In this document: positions 36,755-44,864 of the stretch, piece by piece
How the letters are laid out: each line of letters begins with the position of its first letter
Position numbering within the stretch: the stretch's first letter is position 1
Assembly (NCBI GenBank): GCA_039810425.1
Contig: JBDHWW010000007.1
Coordinates: 21,929-85,928, forward strand
Direction: 5' to 3'
From: Pseudobdellovibrionaceae bacterium
GTDB taxonomy: Bacteria > Bdellovibrionota > Bdellovibrionia > Bdellovibrionales > Bdellovibrionaceae
DNA: 64,000 bases
Notes under the pieces: generated by a model
Seen by the model: only the letters and a program-made list of their open reading frames with translations
Told to the model about the DNA's origin: nothing
The model's database searches: none
Made by a program: the position numbers and the translations under genes

Positions 36755-38683
36755 TTGACAGGGGTATATAGTTTGATTGGCAAAGCGTTGTCTTTACGTA
36801 TTCTTATGTTCGCTCTCGTTTCGATTCTTCCTATCACGGCAGGAAAATTGAAATTTGTTCCTATTTATAAAATTCTAGCGATCAAAGCGAACAAAAAACT
36901 TCCTCCCCACATTGCCTACACCGACAGTCATTTCGAATCTCAAAACAATGAGTGGAGTGATCTAGAGAAAAGAGCCAAGCAGTCGATCGGCGTTGGTTTA
37001 AATGATGTCGGTATACAAGGCCCTTACGTGCTGACGCAAAAACGCGAGCTCGAAGGATTTACAATTCGCAAAAGCGTTGAGACTGTTGCGCCCAACACGT
37101 TAGGTGTTTACAAAACGAGCGCGCAAGCTGCTCAGGAAAATGAAGGACCGCAATGGTTGAAAAACATTGTGCGGGAGCCGGCTGCATTAGGTAGAGCTCC
37201 ATCCGCCCCGGAAGAGCGCCCACAAAACATGATGGCCGCAAAACGCGTGACGGGCCCGATCGAGCTGACTCAAGGACTGGCTGTTACAAATGAACATCAT
37301 ATTGAAATTCGCCGCAGTGATGAAGGGGTCTTTCGTGAGATGGGTCACGTTGACCTGATGAAAGGCTCCTACAGTATCGATATTGATGATGCCACGGGCG
37401 CCATCGTGGCTAGATTGCTAAATAAGGCCGGCATTGTTCTTGGCGAGGGCAGCATTCGCCTGAGCAAGCTTCAAGTGGGTGAAGGACGCTTGATCTATGG
37501 ACCGCGCCTTGAAATCTCTCCGAGCCCGACTTGGACCGGAAAAGTTTCCTATCACTATCCGAACCCTAAGAAGGCAGCGGAACTCCCCCAGGTCACAACA
37601 TTTGGTGGTCAAAACCCAGTGGTTGTGAATCAAAAAGGCGAAATCAGTTTAGAGAATGTTTCTAAAAACTCAACGACCGTTGTGCGCGCGGAAGCCAAAG
37701 ATTTTATGCCTGCGAGTAAAATCATGGTTGCTGGCGAAAAGTCTTTCGGCATTTCGATGTTTCCGAACTCGATGATGGAGGCTTTAAAAACCATCGTTGC
37801 AGATCAAAAGAATATCGTTCATAGCCGTCTTAAAGACAGCTCTATCGTTTGGGGAACGGCCACCCTCGATGGGAAGCCGTTATCAGGTGTTACGGTTATT
37901 TCCGAGACCGATCCGGAAGCTAAAGCGATTTACTTTAACGAGTTCCTCATTCCGGACTCGAAATTAACCTCAACAAGCTCTAGTGGGCTGTATGCGTTTG
38001 TCGACCTTGGCGATGGCTTCCATGCCCTGCTCGCACAAAGAGGAGACGCTTATCTCGGTCATCAAAACGTCGAAGTGGAAGCTGGCAGTGTTGCGATAGG
38101 CGATATTCAAAGCACTTTACATACTGAGCCCGTTCGTGTCCGCGCGTTTGATGCCTTTAGTGGGGAACCTATTTCTCTGGTGGCCAATCTGCAAAGTTTG
38201 TCCGAGCCATTACAGATTAATGAGGGCTCTGCATCGATCGTATTGCCGCAGGTTTCCCGTATGAGCATGATCTATACAGAAGCCCCAGCAACCTACGTGA
38301 GCGCAAACTATTTCTATAACGATCAGGATTCTTTTATACACTTGCCAATGATTAGCTCTGACTGGCTCGCGGAACTTAAAACAATTGCCAAGGTGAACGA
38401 GACTCCACAGGCGGGAACTATCATAGGCTTCTTTGGTGAAGAAAGATTTGAGGCCTATCTAGCAGGCCAAGATAAGGATTCTCCGGCGACAATCATTTAC
38501 TTTGATGCTGCAGGAAGAGTGGTTGATGGCCGCCAGGGTGTTGCTGGTGGTGGTTTCGTGATCTTCAATGTTCCTTACGGCACACAAGAGACCGTGATTG
38601 TTGGAGTCTCTGAGAAAGTTTTCTCTAAGGTCGTCCCGGTCGACACGGATACGGTTTCAGTTTTGACCTTTACTTCTTACTAG
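36755..38683 (+). CDS. Large exported/membrane-anchored hypothetical protein with beta-sandwich (carboxypeptidase-regulatory-like) segments; start uncertain
   Basis: 642-codon ORF; N-terminal hydrophobic stretch; G.PLSGVTV...TSSSGLYAF.DL pattern. Confidence 0.65.
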   Translation: MTGVYSLIGKALSLRILMFALVSILPITAGKLKFVPIYKILAIKANKKLPPHIAYTDSHFESQNNEWSDLEKRAKQSIGVGLNDVGIQGPYVLTQKRELEGFTIRKSVETVAPNTLGVYKTSAQAAQENEGPQWLKNIVREPAALGRAPSAPEERPQNMMAAKRVTGPIELTQGLAVTNEHHIEIRRSDEGVFREMGHVDLMKGSYSIDIDDATGAIVARLLNKAGIVLGEGSIRLSKLQVGEGRLIYGPRLEISPSPTWTGKVSYHYPNPKKAAELPQVTTFGGQNPVVVNQKGEISLENVSKNSTTVVRAEAKDFMPASKIMVAGEKSFGISMFPNSMMEALKTIVADQKNIVHSRLKDSSIVWGTATLDGKPLSGVTVISETDPEAKAIYFNEFLIPDSKLTSTSSSGLYAFVDLGDGFHALLAQRGDAYLGHQNVEVEAGSVAIGDIQSTLHTEPVRVRAFDAFSGEPISLVANLQSLSEPLQINEGSASIVLPQVSRMSMIYTEAPATYVSANYFYNDQDSFIHLPMISSDWLAELKTIAKVNETPQAGTIIGFFGEERFEAYLAGQDKDSPATIIYFDAAGRVVDGRQGVAGGGFVIFNVPYGTQETVIVGVSEKVFSKVVPVDTDTVSVLTFTSY

Positions 38684-40036: not shown

Positions 40037-41488
40037 ATGAACGGCGAAACTTTTCCAAGCTTCAAAAGCGCAAAATTCACAGCCATTATCAGCGACCTGC
40101 ATCTTTGTGAGGCCGAGCCGGTTAATCTAAAGTTTCCGCTCTGGAAGAAGTTTAAAACCAAGCAGTTTTTTTTCGACGATATCTTCACAGGTTTTTTGCA
40201 AGAAATTGAAAATAAAGCCAAGGGTGAGACCGTTGAGCTGGTTTTGAACGGAGACATTTTTGACTTTGATAGCGTGCTCCGTTTGCCTGAGGAGCCGATT
40301 TTTAGGGTGAGCCGGCTTGAAAAAAGGCGCGGTTTGTATCCGCGGGCGGAACGCTCGAGTTTTAAAATCAAAGTGATTCTTGAGGATCATGCTGTTTTTA
40401 TGCGGGCGTTGCGTGAATTCATCCGTCGTGGCAATCGTGTTGTTTTTGTAATTGGCAATCACGATCTTGAGCTTCACTTTCCGGAAGTGCAGCAAGAAGT
40501 TCGTCATGCATTAGATTTGACGGAAGAACAGCAATATCAAGTTCGTTTTGTGGAGTGGTTTTATATTTCCAACGAAGACACTTTGATCGAGCACGGGAAC
40601 CAGTACGACCCTTATTGTATGTGCGAGGATCCGATCAACCCCTATGTGCAAGGTTACAACTTTGTTTCGCTGAGATTGCCGTTTGGAAACCTGGCTTGCC
40701 GGTATATCATGAATGGCTTAGGCTTCTTTAATCCACACGTCGATTCAAACTACATCATGGGTATTACTGATTATGTGATGGTCTTTTTGCGATACATGGC
40801 CCGCGCCCAACCGTTCATGGTTCTAACTTGGTTCTTCGGTTCGATCATGACATTGATTCAGTCTTTTAAAGACCGCTTGGCGGCACCCATCCGAAATCCC
40901 CTCAAGATTGAAGATCGTATTGAGGCGATTGCCCGCAACTCAAATGCGGAACCAAGAATGGTGCGCGAAATGAAAGAGCTTTTTGTGGCTCCGGCGGCCA
41001 GCAATCCGTTCTTACTGGCCCGCGAATTGTGGCTGGATCGCGCCTTCTTGATTTGTGTCGCGTTCTTTTTGATCTTTGAATTGATGATCTTTGTTCGTCA
41101 GGTTTATGATTTGTCTTTCTTCTGGGCATTCATTCCGATGTTCATCTTGCTGCCGTTCTTTCTTTTCTATAGCAAGTCCATTACGTCGCTGGTTTCCAGT
41201 TATAAGGAGCCAAACGAAAGAATCCTGGCGATGACGAGTACGATTGCCAAAGTAAAACGTGTCATCTATGGGCACACCCACCACGTTCGTCATGAAATGA
41301 TTGGCGCGGTAGAACATCTAAATTCAGGCTGCTGGTCTCCGGCATTTTTAGATATTGAGTGTACAAAACCGTTGGATCAAAAAACTTACGTGTGGCTTTC
41401 TCCTCTGGAAACGGGAGAAAGACAGGCAGAACTTTACAAATTTATTGATGGACAGTCGCAACTCTTTATGTCGGCGGGCAGCCGCTAG
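40037..41488 (+). CDS. Calcineurin-like metallophosphoesterase with TM segments
   Basis: SDLH, NGDIFD, GNHD, EHG, GHTH; hydrophobic helices before the last motif. Confidence 0.85.
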   Translation: MNGETFPSFKSAKFTAIISDLHLCEAEPVNLKFPLWKKFKTKQFFFDDIFTGFLQEIENKAKGETVELVLNGDIFDFDSVLRLPEEPIFRVSRLEKRRGLYPRAERSSFKIKVILEDHAVFMRALREFIRRGNRVVFVIGNHDLELHFPEVQQEVRHALDLTEEQQYQVRFVEWFYISNEDTLIEHGNQYDPYCMCEDPINPYVQGYNFVSLRLPFGNLACRYIMNGLGFFNPHVDSNYIMGITDYVMVFLRYMARAQPFMVLTWFFGSIMTLIQSFKDRLAAPIRNPLKIEDRIEAIARNSNAEPRMVREMKELFVAPAASNPFLLARELWLDRAFLICVAFFLIFELMIFVRQVYDLSFFWAFIPMFILLPFFLFYSKSITSLVSSYKEPNERILAMTSTIAKVKRVIYGHTHHVRHEMIGAVEHLNSGCWSPAFLDIECTKPLDQKTYVWLSPLETGERQAELYKFIDGQSQLFMSAGSR

Positions 41489-41596
41489 TAAAAAAAAGCC
41501 CCCGTTATGCGGCGCGCGACAAATAAAATTTGTCAATGACCAAGCGCTATGCAAACCTCTTAATGTTTTTAAAAGCGAAAACGGAGGCTAAGGACT

Positions 41597-41791
41597 ATGT
41601 CAGAAGTACTAGTTGTAACTAGCAAAGTAAAAAAATTGATCAAGGAAAAAGGCGGAATGAATACTTCTGCTGAAACGATCGACGTTTTGAGCAAAGCGAT
41701 TGAGCAACTCTGCCTTAAAGGCATTGATAGCGCGAAAGCTGACGGTCGCAAGACTGTTATGGCTCGCGATATCGTTATTGATCATTTGTAG
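41597..41791 (+). CDS. Bacterial histone (singlet histone fold; Bd0055/HBb-like)
   Basis: 64 aa; three-helix pattern with L2/alpha3 signature AKADGRKTVMARDI (cf. archaeal HMf RKTIKAEDI, H4 RKTVTAMDV); near-identical to my recollection of B. bacteriovorus Bd0055; AAGGA RBS. Confidence 0.92.
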   Translation: MSEVLVVTSKVKKLIKEKGGMNTSAETIDVLSKAIEQLCLKGIDSAKADGRKTVMARDIVIDHL

Positions 41792-41830
41792 AAGTTAGCC
41801 TTACATCACCAGGCTTTTTATCCCGAACTT

Positions 41831-41866
41831 AAAAAAGAAGCTCGCAAGGGCCTCTTTTTTATTTTT
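41831..41866 (+). terminator. Probable terminator after the histone gene
   Basis: A-tract, imperfect stem with GCAA loop, T-tract. Confidence 0.6.
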
Positions 41867-41888
41867 GCACTATGATTTAGATAAAGCT

Positions 41889-42449
41889 ATGGAAAAAACA
41901 TTCCCTCCGTCGAAAATTCCACTCACGCACGCCCAGTTGAAACGAAGAAATATCAAAGACGTTTATTCCGCTTTCGAATGTGTCGATAGTGACCGCGCTC
42001 GCTTGAGGGAGTTTCTTCCGTGGGTGGATAAGTCGAAATCCGTCGAAGACCAGGTTTGGTATGTCGGCGAATGTCTTAAAGACTGGGAGGCTGGTCAGCT
42101 CTTCGACTATGCAATCTTTAGCGCCGAGGACCAATTTATCGGCGCTATGGGCGTTCATAATATTCTTTGGGAGCACAACTGTTGTGAAATCGGCTATTGG
42201 ATTCATCAAAAGTACGAGAGCCAAGGACTTATCACATCTGCTTTGAAAGCATTAGAAAAAGAACTTTTTAGGATGGGCTTTCACCGCATTGAGATCCGCT
42301 GTGATCCCCACAATCAGAAATCGGCGGCGGTTCCAATTCGAAATGGTTACACGTTTGAAGGCGTTCTCCGGCAAAATACTCTATGCACCGACACTTACCG
42401 TGATACAGCAGTTTATGCGAAGCTTAGGACCGACCCAGTAAAAACATAG
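41889..42449 (+). CDS. RimJ/RimL-family GNAT N-acetyltransferase
   Basis: LREFLPW, EIGYWI....SQG, N.KS..VP.R.G..FEG.LR. Confidence 0.88.
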   Translation: MEKTFPPSKIPLTHAQLKRRNIKDVYSAFECVDSDRARLREFLPWVDKSKSVEDQVWYVGECLKDWEAGQLFDYAIFSAEDQFIGAMGVHNILWEHNCCEIGYWIHQKYESQGLITSALKALEKELFRMGFHRIEIRCDPHNQKSAAVPIRNGYTFEGVLRQNTLCTDTYRDTAVYAKLRTDPVKT

Positions 42450-42864
42450 CGCCACCAATCACGATGGAACTCATCAAGCCAATAAAAAGAATCCAGGCCA
42501 CCATGCGGCGTTTGAACTTTATCTTGTCTGCCTTTGCGCGGACAAAGACGTCTTCATTTGCATCTGTTTCAAGCTCTTTCGGAAACTCCGGGAGGCCTGT
42601 TGGAAAACCAAAGCGTTCTAATGTTGAGGAAATCTTTGATAAGTCTTTCGTTGCCAGAGTGATGTAGAAAATCTGACCGAGATATTGCTCTGTACGATAT
42701 TCGGCTTGATTTACAATATTTGAAAAGTTACTGGCACTAAACCTTTTTTCAGCATCGTCGTCCTTTTGAATTTCAAAAGGAATGTTTTTAATTTGCAGCT
42801 CACGGACAAAGCTATCGAGCTCTTGCGGCGTTAAAGGGCCGTATTGGACTGTTTTGCCGGTCAT
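42424..42864 (-). CDS. Hypothetical protein with C-terminal TM helix
   Basis: ATG 2 nt after the ligA stop; C-terminal hydrophobic helix. Confidence 0.7.
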   Translation of the reverse strand: MTGKTVQYGPLTPQELDSFVRELQIKNIPFEIQKDDDAEKRFSASNFSNIVNQAEYRTEQYLGQIFYITLATKDLSKISSTLERFGFPTGLPEFPKELETDANEDVFVRAKADKIKFKRRMVAWILFIGLMSSIVIGGAMFLLGRS

Positions 42865-42866
42865 GT

Positions 42867-44864
42867 TCACACCATTGCCTGAAGTTCTTCCCAAGAGATC
42901 ACTTTGACTCCGAGGGTTTGAGCCTTCTCTAATTTAGAGCCGGGGTCATCGCCGACCACCAGGTAATTTAACTTTGAAGAAACGGAGCCAAGAATTTTTC
43001 CACCATTATGCTCTATGAAATCTTTCGCATCGTCACGTTTGACCGGCAAGGTTCCGGTAATTAAGAAGCTGCTGCCAGACAGCCTTCCTGTGGTGGAGCG
43101 TTTTGGTGCTTCGAACTGCACACCTAGAGCCATCATTTCTTTAATATCTTTAACGAGCTTGGGATTGCTCAGCCATTCAAGAATAGCCTTTGCGACTTTC
43201 GGGCCGATCTCAGGCACTCGTAAGAGATCCTCTTCTTTTGCGCCCATGAAGTTTTCAACGGTGACAAAGTGATCGGCCACGTGCTTGGCCGTCTGCTCAC
43301 CGACAAAACGAATTCCGAGCGCAAAAATAAATCGAGCAAGCGTCGTGTGCTTACTGTTCTCCACGCTCTTAAGAATGTTTTCCACGGACTTTTCCCCTTG
43401 GCGCTCAAGGTCCAAAAGCTGTTCTTTCTTGAGACGGAAGAGATCGCTGAACTTCGTGACAAGCTGGGCATTAACCAGAGTCTCAATCAGCCGGTCGCCC
43501 ACCTTATCCATGTTCATCGCGCGACGGGCGACAAAGTGTTTCAGGGATTCTTTGACGATGGCGATGCAAAGCGGATTCGTACAGCGCGTGACAACTTCAC
43601 CTTCGAGCTTATGAACGCGGCTTCCGCAAGCAGGACACTTATTTGGGATCAAAAAAGGTTCAGAGCCCTTCGGGCGTTTGGACAAAACGACTTCAACAAC
43701 TTCTGGGATCACGTCACCGGCACGCTGAATGACCACGGTATCGCCGACGCGCACATCCTTGCGGTCGATTTCCTCTTGGTTGTGCAAAGTCGCATTTGTG
43801 ACCGTAACACCACCCACACGAACCGGAAGCATGATCGCGACAGGTGTCAGTGCGCCGGTTCTTCCGACCTGGACGTTGATGCTTTCAACAATCGTTTCGG
43901 CCTGTTCGGGCTTGAATTTCGCGGCGGTTGCCCAGCGCGGGCTTCTGGCAACGAGACCCAAGTCGTCTTGCAGACGGATGGAGTTGGCTTTAATCACGAT
44001 CCCATCAATATCAAAGGCCAGCTTTGGGCGGCCCTTTTCTATAAAGTGATAGTATTCAACAACAGCTTCCGCGCTTTCGCAAACGCGGATGAGTCCAGGA
44101 TTCAGAGTCTGTGCAGTTGGAATTCCAACTTTTGCGAAGTACTCGCCGATATCTGATTGGTTTTTGAACTCAACCCCATCGACCTCACCAAGCGCATAAG
44201 CGAAAAAACGCAAAGGGCGAGAGGCCGCTATCTTTGAATCGAGCTGACGAACCGTCCCGGCGGCGGCATTGCGGGGATTTGCAAAAGTCTGCTGACCGTT
44301 CTCTTGCTGTTGCTCGTTGAGTTTCGCGAAGTCGGCTTTAAACATTAAAACTTCGCCACGCACCTCCAGTAGGCGTGGCGGTTTTGCCATTTTAAGCTTC
44401 AGTGGAATGCTTTTGATTGTGCGGATGTTTTGGGTAACATCTTCACCAGTAGTGCCATCTCCGCGTGTAATTGCGCGGACCATATTACCGCTCTCATACA
44501 CGAGTTCCATTGACAAGCCATCAAACTTGGGTTCAACAAAGTACTCAATTTTCTGATCGCTTTTCAAAAATTTACGGAGACGCTGGTCGAAATCGACGAC
44601 ATCTTCGGGAGAGTAGCTATTTGCCAAGGAGAGCATGGGGCGGCGATGCGCCACCTTTTCGAAAACTGTAAGGGGCACGCCACCCACACGCTGCGAGGGA
44701 GAGTCGCTGAGGTCTAGTCCAGGTTCTTTCTCCTCAAGCTTAAGAAGTTCTGAGTAGAGCTGATCGTAGTCGTAGTCAGAAATAACCGGCTTGTCGAGAA
44801 CGTGATAGTTGTAGTCGTGTCCGGCAAGGATCTTCTTAAGCTCTTCGTGACGTTTCTTTGACAT
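42867..44864 (-). CDS. ligA: NAD-dependent DNA ligase
   Basis: EPKFDG adenylation motif, Zn finger, HhH, BRCT. Confidence 0.98.
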   Translation of the reverse strand: MSKKRHEELKKILAGHDYNYHVLDKPVISDYDYDQLYSELLKLEEKEPGLDLSDSPSQRVGGVPLTVFEKVAHRRPMLSLANSYSPEDVVDFDQRLRKFLKSDQKIEYFVEPKFDGLSMELVYESGNMVRAITRGDGTTGEDVTQNIRTIKSIPLKLKMAKPPRLLEVRGEVLMFKADFAKLNEQQQENGQQTFANPRNAAAGTVRQLDSKIAASRPLRFFAYALGEVDGVEFKNQSDIGEYFAKVGIPTAQTLNPGLIRVCESAEAVVEYYHFIEKGRPKLAFDIDGIVIKANSIRLQDDLGLVARSPRWATAAKFKPEQAETIVESINVQVGRTGALTPVAIMLPVRVGGVTVTNATLHNQEEIDRKDVRVGDTVVIQRAGDVIPEVVEVVLSKRPKGSEPFLIPNKCPACGSRVHKLEGEVVTRCTNPLCIAIVKESLKHFVARRAMNMDKVGDRLIETLVNAQLVTKFSDLFRLKKEQLLDLERQGEKSVENILKSVENSKHTTLARFIFALGIRFVGEQTAKHVADHFVTVENFMGAKEEDLLRVPEIGPKVAKAILEWLSNPKLVKDIKEMMALGVQFEAPKRSTTGRLSGSSFLITGTLPVKRDDAKDFIEHNGGKILGSVSSKLNYLVVGDDPGSKLEKAQTLGVKVISWEELQAMV

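Follow-up and report, generated by a model that had tools for sequence, protein, structure and literature searches.

A very probable ortholog of the Bdellovibrio histone HBb (Bd0055) encoded near dnaA in a Pseudobdellovibrionaceae genome

RESULTS

The 64-codon gene and its flanking signals

We analyzed a 64,000-nt stretch of DNA (the window) from a Pseudobdellovibrionaceae genome, in which a sequence-only reading had recognized a small stand-alone histone gene. The open reading frame (ORF) lies exactly where that reading had placed it on the forward strand, starting with ATG and ending with TAG (Table 1), and an in-frame stop codon is found 8 codons upstream of the ATG, giving an open frame of 72 aa. 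The 64-aa product contains 9 Lys, 2 Arg, 9 acidic residues (Asp plus Glu), and a single Cys, and has a pI of 8.85; with Lys at 14%, the description "Lys-rich" holds only in a moderate sense. Exactly this protein is recorded on 38 public contigs, and its 90% identity cluster contains 3 members publicly named "histone H3/H4".

Inspection of the upstream region confirmed that the gene has a ribosome-binding site of its own, a GGAGG Shine-Dalgarno motif (Table 1). The stretch ACGGAGGCTAA in this region was invariant in 7 genomes of the genus; the listed orthologs likewise carry GGAG-type motifs ahead of their start codons. The spacer between the stop codon of the upstream metallophosphoesterase gene and the histone gene measures 108 nt, and comparison across 7 congeneric genomes (alignment A2) revealed a conserved non-coding block there, with a mean column identity of 85%. 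Invariant in this alignment were AATTTGTCA at positions 41527 to 41535, with a −35-like TTGTCA, and GCTATGCAAACCT at positions 41546 to 41558. An inverted repeat, GACAAAT-AAA-ATTTGTC (positions 41520 to 41536), overlaps the −35-like TTGTCA, and since only the right arm of the repeat is invariant in the genus, it is doubtful that it serves as an operator. A sigma-70 consensus promoter scan of positions 41300 to 42100 found 0 promoters (1.0 expected), an Rfam search of positions 41300 to 42000 returned only a chance match to a miRNA family (E = 0.53), and the upstream intergenic RNA did not show any significant fold (z = −1.37). The conservation of the upstream block fits a promoter or control region belonging to the histone gene, for which the block is a candidate.

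For the downstream region, in which a terminator had been claimed, the terminator consensus scan called none downstream of the histone gene, but folding yielded two hairpins followed by U-runs (Table 1). The first, with a 5-bp stem (AGCCU/AGGCU), a 9-nt loop, and a trailing UUUUUAU, was missed by the scan because its loop exceeds the limit of 8 nt; the second consists of an A-tract, a GC-rich stem with one A/C mismatch, a GCAA loop, and a U-tract. The fold of positions 41789 to 41875, which holds both hairpins, had a dG of −20.2 kcal/mol and a z score of −2.07, and 7 of 200 shuffles were as good. By reading of alignment A3, a hairpin and a T-run were found at this place in 7/7 genomes of the genus despite differing sequences: genomes G050 and G020 form the second hairpin with a perfect GAAGC/GCTTC stem and G079 with an altered, still pairing one, and G071 and G087 carry unrelated hairpins with T-runs at the downstream position. 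This comparison within the genus is stronger support for a terminator than the fold of the single sequence, and the second hairpin is likely an intrinsic terminator, possibly a two-way one. The claimed terminator was thus confirmed in part. The gene likely constitutes a stand-alone transcription unit, which would extend from the conserved non-coding block through to the hairpins. Four sequencing runs gave 7 short contig pieces (151 to 260 nt, 6 of them without differences), which were scattered over 2.4 kb and were uninformative on transcription.

TABLE 1 Coordinates of the features described in this work (window positions unless a contig or locus is named)
Feature	Position	Strand	Basis or remark
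642-aa ORF	36755..38683	+	No Pfam match
Metallophosphoesterase gene, 483 aa	40037..41488	+
Conserved non-coding block, candidate promoter/regulatory region	41505..41578	+	Alignment A2, 7 genus genomes
Shine-Dalgarno GGAGG	41583..41587	+	9 nt before ATG, read from sequence
CDS of the HBb/Bd0055 ortholog (very probable), 64 aa plus TAG	41597..41791	+	ORF list, PDB identity, Foldseek, mostly synonymous codon differences
First hairpin with U-run	41797..41822 (hairpin 41797-41815)	+	Minimum-free-energy fold
Second hairpin with A- and U-tracts, likely intrinsic terminator	41830..41866 (hairpin 41830-41861)	+	Fold
GNAT acetyltransferase gene	41889..42449	+	Acetyltransf_3 (E = 6e-20)
156-aa ORF	42424..42894	−	No Pfam family
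Free-standing ZZ-type zinc finger, 75 aa	Source genome G000, contig C76:4639-4866 (= L053:1001-1228)	+	ZZ-histone query
ZZ-histone match with flagged stop	G102:C1:2949812-2950306
ZZ-histone match with flagged stop	G086:C1:2954874-2955365
ZZ-histone match with flagged stop	G070:C1:851853-852341
ZZ-histone match with flagged stop	G007:C51:1945-2406
ZZ-histone match with flagged stop	G118:C21:2369-2812

Gene neighborhood and chromosomal position

The neighbors of the histone gene in the window are murD, the metallophosphoesterase gene, a GNAT gene, ligA, gatC, and gatA, in agreement with the housekeeping surroundings described for it. The metallophosphoesterase, which we take to be membrane-bound because of its hydrophobic stretches, is a near-constant upstream neighbor, encoded on the same strand at a spacing of about 100 to 150 nt. 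To follow this arrangement across the family, 10 kb around the gene was compared in 20 of the 120 other genomes, one per genus, with matches lying away from contig ends. The metallophosphoesterase gene was directly upstream on the same strand in 18/20 of these loci, and a convergent ligA was present within 1.6 kb downstream in 17/20, the three misses being one locus at a contig edge and two that were rearranged or had 4 kb inserted. The metallophosphoesterase-histone-ligA group is flanked by murD and gatCA in the other-genus loci. Among 19 closer loci, inspected with 1.5-kb flanks, the metallophosphoesterase gene was found in 19 and ligA in 18. The 642-aa ORF of the window stands beside murD in 18 of the 20 other-genus loci, at 25 to 43% identity, and so is syntenic despite evolving fast.

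Between the histone gene and ligA, the window carries a RimJ/RimL-like GNAT acetyltransferase gene and the 156-aa ORF. Only G050 and G020 among 39 related loci possess this pair, and the 156-aa ORF alone also occurs in G079; the two genes make up an insertion that varies among the loci. The GNAT protein was considered as a histone acetyltransferase partner and rejected, as its gene was at this place in 0/20 other-genus loci and in 2/19 closer loci (G050 and G020).

The gene had also been described as lying near the origin. The AAA+ domain of dnaA is encoded at C7:18828-19316 and the histone gene starts at C7:63525, about 44 kb downstream on the same contig and strand, which bears this out. In all 6 genomes measured, the histone gene was 42 to 51 kb downstream of dnaA and on the dnaA strand (42.5 to 51.3 kb in the five other genomes). 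Most of the window shows positive GC skew, so that the histone gene runs with replication.

Relationship to B. bacteriovorus HBb

A phmmer search of all PDB chains matched residues 1 to 64 of the protein to 8fvx_A/8cmp_A, the histone Bd0055/HBb of B. bacteriovorus, with 60/64 identical residues (94%) and an E value of 2e-33; the four differences from the crystallized chain are S2/A, G20/Q, I43/V, and D44/E. Weaker matches comprised HTkC (9f2c, E = 1.9e-5), HmvA, HLp (9qt0, E = 4e-3), Asgard HHoB, HMk, HPhA, and HMfA/B. The nucleosomal archaeal histones scored weakly (E = 0.04 to 0.47), and the HMfA/HMfB alignments paired 51 query with 55 target residues. With profile A1, an alignment of 25 orthologs, the HBb chains were again retrieved first (E = 1e-42), followed by HTkC, HmvA, HMk, HLp, and Asgard histones. 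In the curated collections, the best Pfam match, CBFD_NFYB_HMF, scored 21.4 bits, exactly at its cutoff of 21.4, and NCBIfam archaea_histone scored 29.7 bits, below its cutoff of 50. Since these family models are borderline, the assignment rests instead on the identity to HBb and on the fold.

The chromosomal place pointed in the same direction. HBb-bearing genomes, in which the protein equals the crystallized chain by reading of the printed sequence, were part of the locus comparisons, and they share with the window both the gene order and the distance to dnaA, which indicates positional orthology with bd0055. The Bd0055/HBb homology proposed earlier is thus upheld by full-length identity, by a model that superimposes on the HBb crystal structure (see below), and by the shared chromosomal place. 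We conclude with high confidence that the product is the ortholog of B. bacteriovorus HBb (Bd0055) and belongs with the "bacterial dimer" histones in the α3-truncated class.

Predicted fold and functional residues

An AlphaFold2 monomer model, template-free and built on alignment A1, had a mean pLDDT of 81.6, with helices at residues 2 to 19, 25 to 48, and 56 to 58 and loops at 20 to 24 (GMNTS) and 49 to 55; the succession of a short α1, an MNTS loop, α2, and L2/α3 was therefore as drawn from the sequence. In a Foldseek comparison of this monomer with the PDB, the top five matches were HBb chains (E = 2e-7 to 1e-6, TM scores of 0.80 to 0.87, rmsd of 1.6 to 2.1 Å), and HTkC, HLp, archaeal histones, and eukaryotic H2B/H4 chains ranked after them, which agrees with the histone fold that had been predicted. 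In the model, α3 consists of 3 residues (56 to 58) and α2 of 24, which places the protein within the definition of the α3-truncated class; in the account of Schwab 2024 (PMC11390915), a class set by sequence clustering, α3 has 3 to 4 residues and α2 is shorter than in nucleosomal histones.

The RKTxxxD motif is present as R51 K52 T53 V54 M55 A56 R57 D58. Hu 2024 (PMC11317129) names V11, L31, I35, L38, and I59 as dimer residues of HBb, R51-D58 with D49 as its clamp, K12, T23, S24, A25, K52, T53, and R57 as its first DNA interface, and T8, S9, and K10 as its second, and Hocher 2023 (PMC10627809) reports that Bd0055 becomes a DNA-wrapping protein when S45, A48, and I61 are mutated. All the dimer, clamp, DNA-contact, and tetramer-block residues named in the available text of these two papers are present in the 64-aa protein, and the substitutions at S2, G20, I43, and D44 do not fall on any of them. 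T8, S9, K10, K12, T23, S24, L31, L38, R51, K52, T53, R57, D58, and I59 were invariant in the 25 orthologs. S45, A48, and I61 are kept, and thus the tetramerization interface is absent.

Distribution and conservation

A six-frame search detected HBb in 121/121 sampled genomes of the family, the source genome included (41/41 genera; 93/93 high-quality genomes), at 64 to 100% identity. Across the phylum, profile A1 matched at E ≤ 1e-5 in 253/301 sampled genomes (225/258 of high quality), counts that include longer, fused forms, and in each of two families of the phylum 0/9 genomes gave a match to this profile. Hocher 2023 (PMC10627809) gives 67% as the share of Bdellovibrionota genomes with Bd0055 homologs.

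Over the 20 other-genus loci, the histone had a median identity of 86% (range, 78 to 95%), compared with 47% for murD, 56% for gatC, 64% for ligA, 65% for the metallophosphoesterase, and 68% for gatA, and it was the best-conserved gene of its neighborhood. Synonymous codon differences outnumbered nonsynonymous ones against each of 28 orthologous coding sequences, for example, by 25 to 1 within the genus and by 28 to 4 against the genomes with the crystallized chain. These results indicated that the histone gene is under strong purifying selection. Its family-wide presence, its fixed place near dnaA, and its top conservation strengthen the case, already made in print, for HBb as a core chromosomal protein of Bdellovibrionota.

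ZZ histones and a free-standing ZZ finger

In many relatives, a frame of 150 to 230 codons held a second match, at about 50% identity, which corresponds to the ZZ histones, an N-terminal zinc finger joined to a histone fold. We take these to be the class of Bd3044. Their C-terminal domain is 47 to 55% identical to the window protein and has the same GRKTVM-RD motif, but they carry an N-terminal ZZ finger (C4 plus C2H2) and a linker, for a total of 150 to 177 aa, neither of which is found in the window ORF. The class is described in Schwab 2024 (PMC11390915). Full-length ZZ histones are encoded near 2.95 and 3.14 Mb in two genomes of genus g10. In five relatives, the ZZ-histone match contains one flagged stop codon, which is either the gene's own terminal stop or a break (Table 1).

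Searches of the source genome with the 64-aa protein, PF00808, profile A1, a ZZ-histone query, and PF09123 did not reveal any second histone fold, two sub-threshold PF00808 matches of 13 bits being disregarded; by these searches, the genome has no histone fold besides HBb. In its histone half, the ZZ-histone query matched HBb only, while its first 68 to 70 residues matched contig C76, where a 75-codon ORF for a free-standing ZZ-type finger ends in a stop codon and is followed by a convergent 281-codon ORF. The 75-aa finger occurs in 3/6 other genomes of the genus (4/7 overall), at 83 to 97% identity and with shared flanking genes, and was not found in the other 3, whose completeness is 99, 93, and 80%; a 71-aa version exists in another genus. 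Eight zinc ligands (C12, C15, C28, C33, C43, C47, H51, and H57) were invariant in 24 aligned fingers, and the only name in the 14-member 90% cluster of the 75-aa finger is "hypothetical protein". To judge from these sequences, the free finger is a maintained gene and not debris.

In this genome, the ZZ histone of the relatives thus survives as the finger alone; the two halves would have come apart in the genus, the histone fold of the paralog being lost and HBb left as the sole histone. Eukaryotic ZZ domains read the N terminus of histone H3. By analogy, one might imagine that the finger can do without a covalently attached histone and acts in trans, reading HBb chromatin or serving as an adaptor for HBb or HBb-coated DNA; we consider this scenario quite improbable. 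Complex prediction for two HBb chains and the free finger, made without controls, gave scores of 0.00 and 0.20, the mark being 0.32. An in situ deletion of the histone half of a ZZ gene gained no support as the origin of the finger: its genus-shared flanking genes were not seen near 30 full-length ZZ-histone loci (1.5 kb inspected). Neither "stand-alone" nor "standalone" occurs in Schwab 2024 (PMC11390915), the paper to which this literature check was confined. The free-standing finger bears on the role of the ZZ domain in bacterial histones and is offered as a lead only.

DISCUSSION

The protein family examined here is already known from crystal structures, genetics, a phylum-wide catalog, and a class name, "bacterial dimer histones", and the finding itself is not new. 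It adds one more ortholog, 94% identical, to a histone crystallized free and on DNA, and its value lies in correct annotation: this genome encodes HBb, like every searched genome of its family.

The properties of the protein in its own cell can be projected from those of HBb. In the text available to us, abundance, sequence-independent binding, and a growth requirement are known only for B. bacteriovorus HD100 (PMC10627809, PMC11317129): HBb is a major constituent of the nucleoid (Hocher 2023, PMC10627809) and binds throughout the genome with no sequence preference (Hu 2024, PMC11317129). The background given in the sequence-only reading, namely, an abundant histone with a shortened α2, no nucleosome-like wrapping, and a disputed binding mode, matches these papers, in which HBb is nucleoid-associated and its α2 is one turn shorter. 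The stated essentiality does so in part, since HBb is called "indispensable" in Hu 2024 (PMC11317129), but Bd0055 is only "probably" essential in Hocher 2023 (PMC10627809), where no deletions were recovered, 133 and 150 reversions were counted, and the result was termed "not an ironclad demonstration". Dimer formation, DNA binding, abundance, and essentiality would be expected in the present organism as well; its 94% identity to crystallographic dimers suggests that the protein forms a handshake homodimer, and orthology points to histone-based chromatin. The genome also has 4 HU/IHF-family genes, so the histone would be one chromatin protein among several.

The following steps are transferred from crystallized HBb. 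Two 64-residue chains would pair through their antiparallel α2 helices (V11, L31, I35, L38, and I59), and the R51-D58 clamp, reinforced by D49, would fix loop L2. The handshake dimer would then bind the DNA backbone nonspecifically through the paired L1-L2 loops, with K12, T23, S24, and A25 of one chain and K52, T53, and R57 of the other, and would make a second contact at the start of α1 (T8, S9, and K10). With S45, A48, and I61 kept, no four-helix-bundle tetramer, and hence no nucleosome or hypernucleosome, would be expected. The main cellular mode would be HU-like bending and compaction of DNA by single dimers, a preference that rests on the papers, and at high protein:DNA ratios, straight DNA may become densely coated end-on.

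How HBb binds DNA is itself disputed, Hocher 2023 (PMC10627809) arguing for an end-on filament and Hu 2024 (PMC11317129) for bending. It is possible, though in our judgment rather unlikely, that the same protein chiefly forms an end-on sheath of dimers round straight DNA, a nucleohistone filament with one dimer per ∼2.5 bp that protects the DNA and does not bend it. In its favor are a co-crystal with 35-bp DNA, the lack of FRET between DNA ends, and the >60 dimers per 147 bp counted by ultracentrifugation (Hocher 2023, PMC10627809), and the 64-aa protein keeps the L1-L2 interface residues and the N-terminal EVL tail. However, tail residue 2 varies among the orthologs (A, S, or P), and tail-deleted Bd0055 still bound DNA (Hocher 2023, PMC10627809). 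Furthermore, Hu 2024 (PMC11317129) describes a second DNA interface (T8, S9, and K10) and crystal packings that differ, and reports bending both in solution and by simulation, and Schwab 2024 (PMC11390915) sides with bending.

Beyond the choice between bending and coating, the histone fold could belong to a specific regulator or a partner of another protein, in the style of NF-Y or TAF and with no general role in chromatin. The best Pfam match is indeed the CBF/NF-Y/archaeal histone family, and not all prokaryotic histone-fold proteins need organize genomes (Schwab 2024, PMC11390915). We nevertheless regard this as highly improbable for a protein 94% identical to a genome-wide, nonspecific DNA binder (Hu 2024, PMC11317129) and major nucleoid constituent (Hocher 2023, PMC10627809), and a second histone-fold partner was not found in this genome. 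That the frame is a chance ORF and no gene, as its mere 64 codons and the 60-aa and 58-aa ORFs overlapping it on the other strand might suggest, is so improbable that it can be dismissed, given the end-to-end match to a crystallized protein, the presence in 121/121 family genomes and on 38 public contigs, and the overwhelmingly synonymous codon differences between orthologs. The locus thus holds a real, ordinary, and expected gene whose product, by the reading we prefer, would bend and compact DNA as single HBb-type dimers.

Comparison with known histones and HU

The closest known system is HBb/Bd0055 of B. bacteriovorus HD100, represented by PDB entries 8FVX, 8FW7, 8CMP, 9EZZ, and 9F0E. The window protein resembles it in its length of 64 aa, its fold, the named residues, the neighboring genes, and the distance to dnaA. 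It differs in that the organism belongs to another GTDB-level genus (g1 versus g10), that the GNAT gene and the 156-aa ORF are situated between the histone gene and ligA, and that no ZZ-histone paralog was found in the genome.

The next-best structural matches were HTkC of Thermococcus (9F2C) and HLp of Leptospira (9QT0), with TMq values of 0.71 to 0.72 and 34 to 40% identity by Foldseek. Both belong to the face-to-face and tetrameric α3 histones and have a short α2 and a truncated α3 like the window protein, but according to PDB titles and a literature listing, they form tetramers that wrap or hypercompact DNA, whereas bacterial dimers are described as lacking the dimer-dimer residues (Schwab 2024, PMC11390915). 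With archaeal HMfB (1A7W), HMfA, and HPhA and the eukaryotic core histones, the window protein shares the histone fold, the (here predicted) handshake dimer, the RD clamp, and the K-T loop motif. In contrast to these nucleosomal histones, its α2 is one turn shorter, its α3 is a single turn, and it has no tetramerization residues, so that no wrapping is expected; a place among nucleosomal archaeal histones of the HMfB type is likewise at odds with its sub-cutoff NCBIfam score, its short α2 and α3, and its absent tetramer residues.

HU and IHF offer a functional analogy, being small, abundant, dimeric, nonspecific benders of DNA, and the parallel is drawn by both Hu 2024 (PMC11317129) and Schwab 2024 (PMC11390915). 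Their fold is unrelated to that of histones, and in the genome studied here, four HU/IHF-family genes coexist with HBb.
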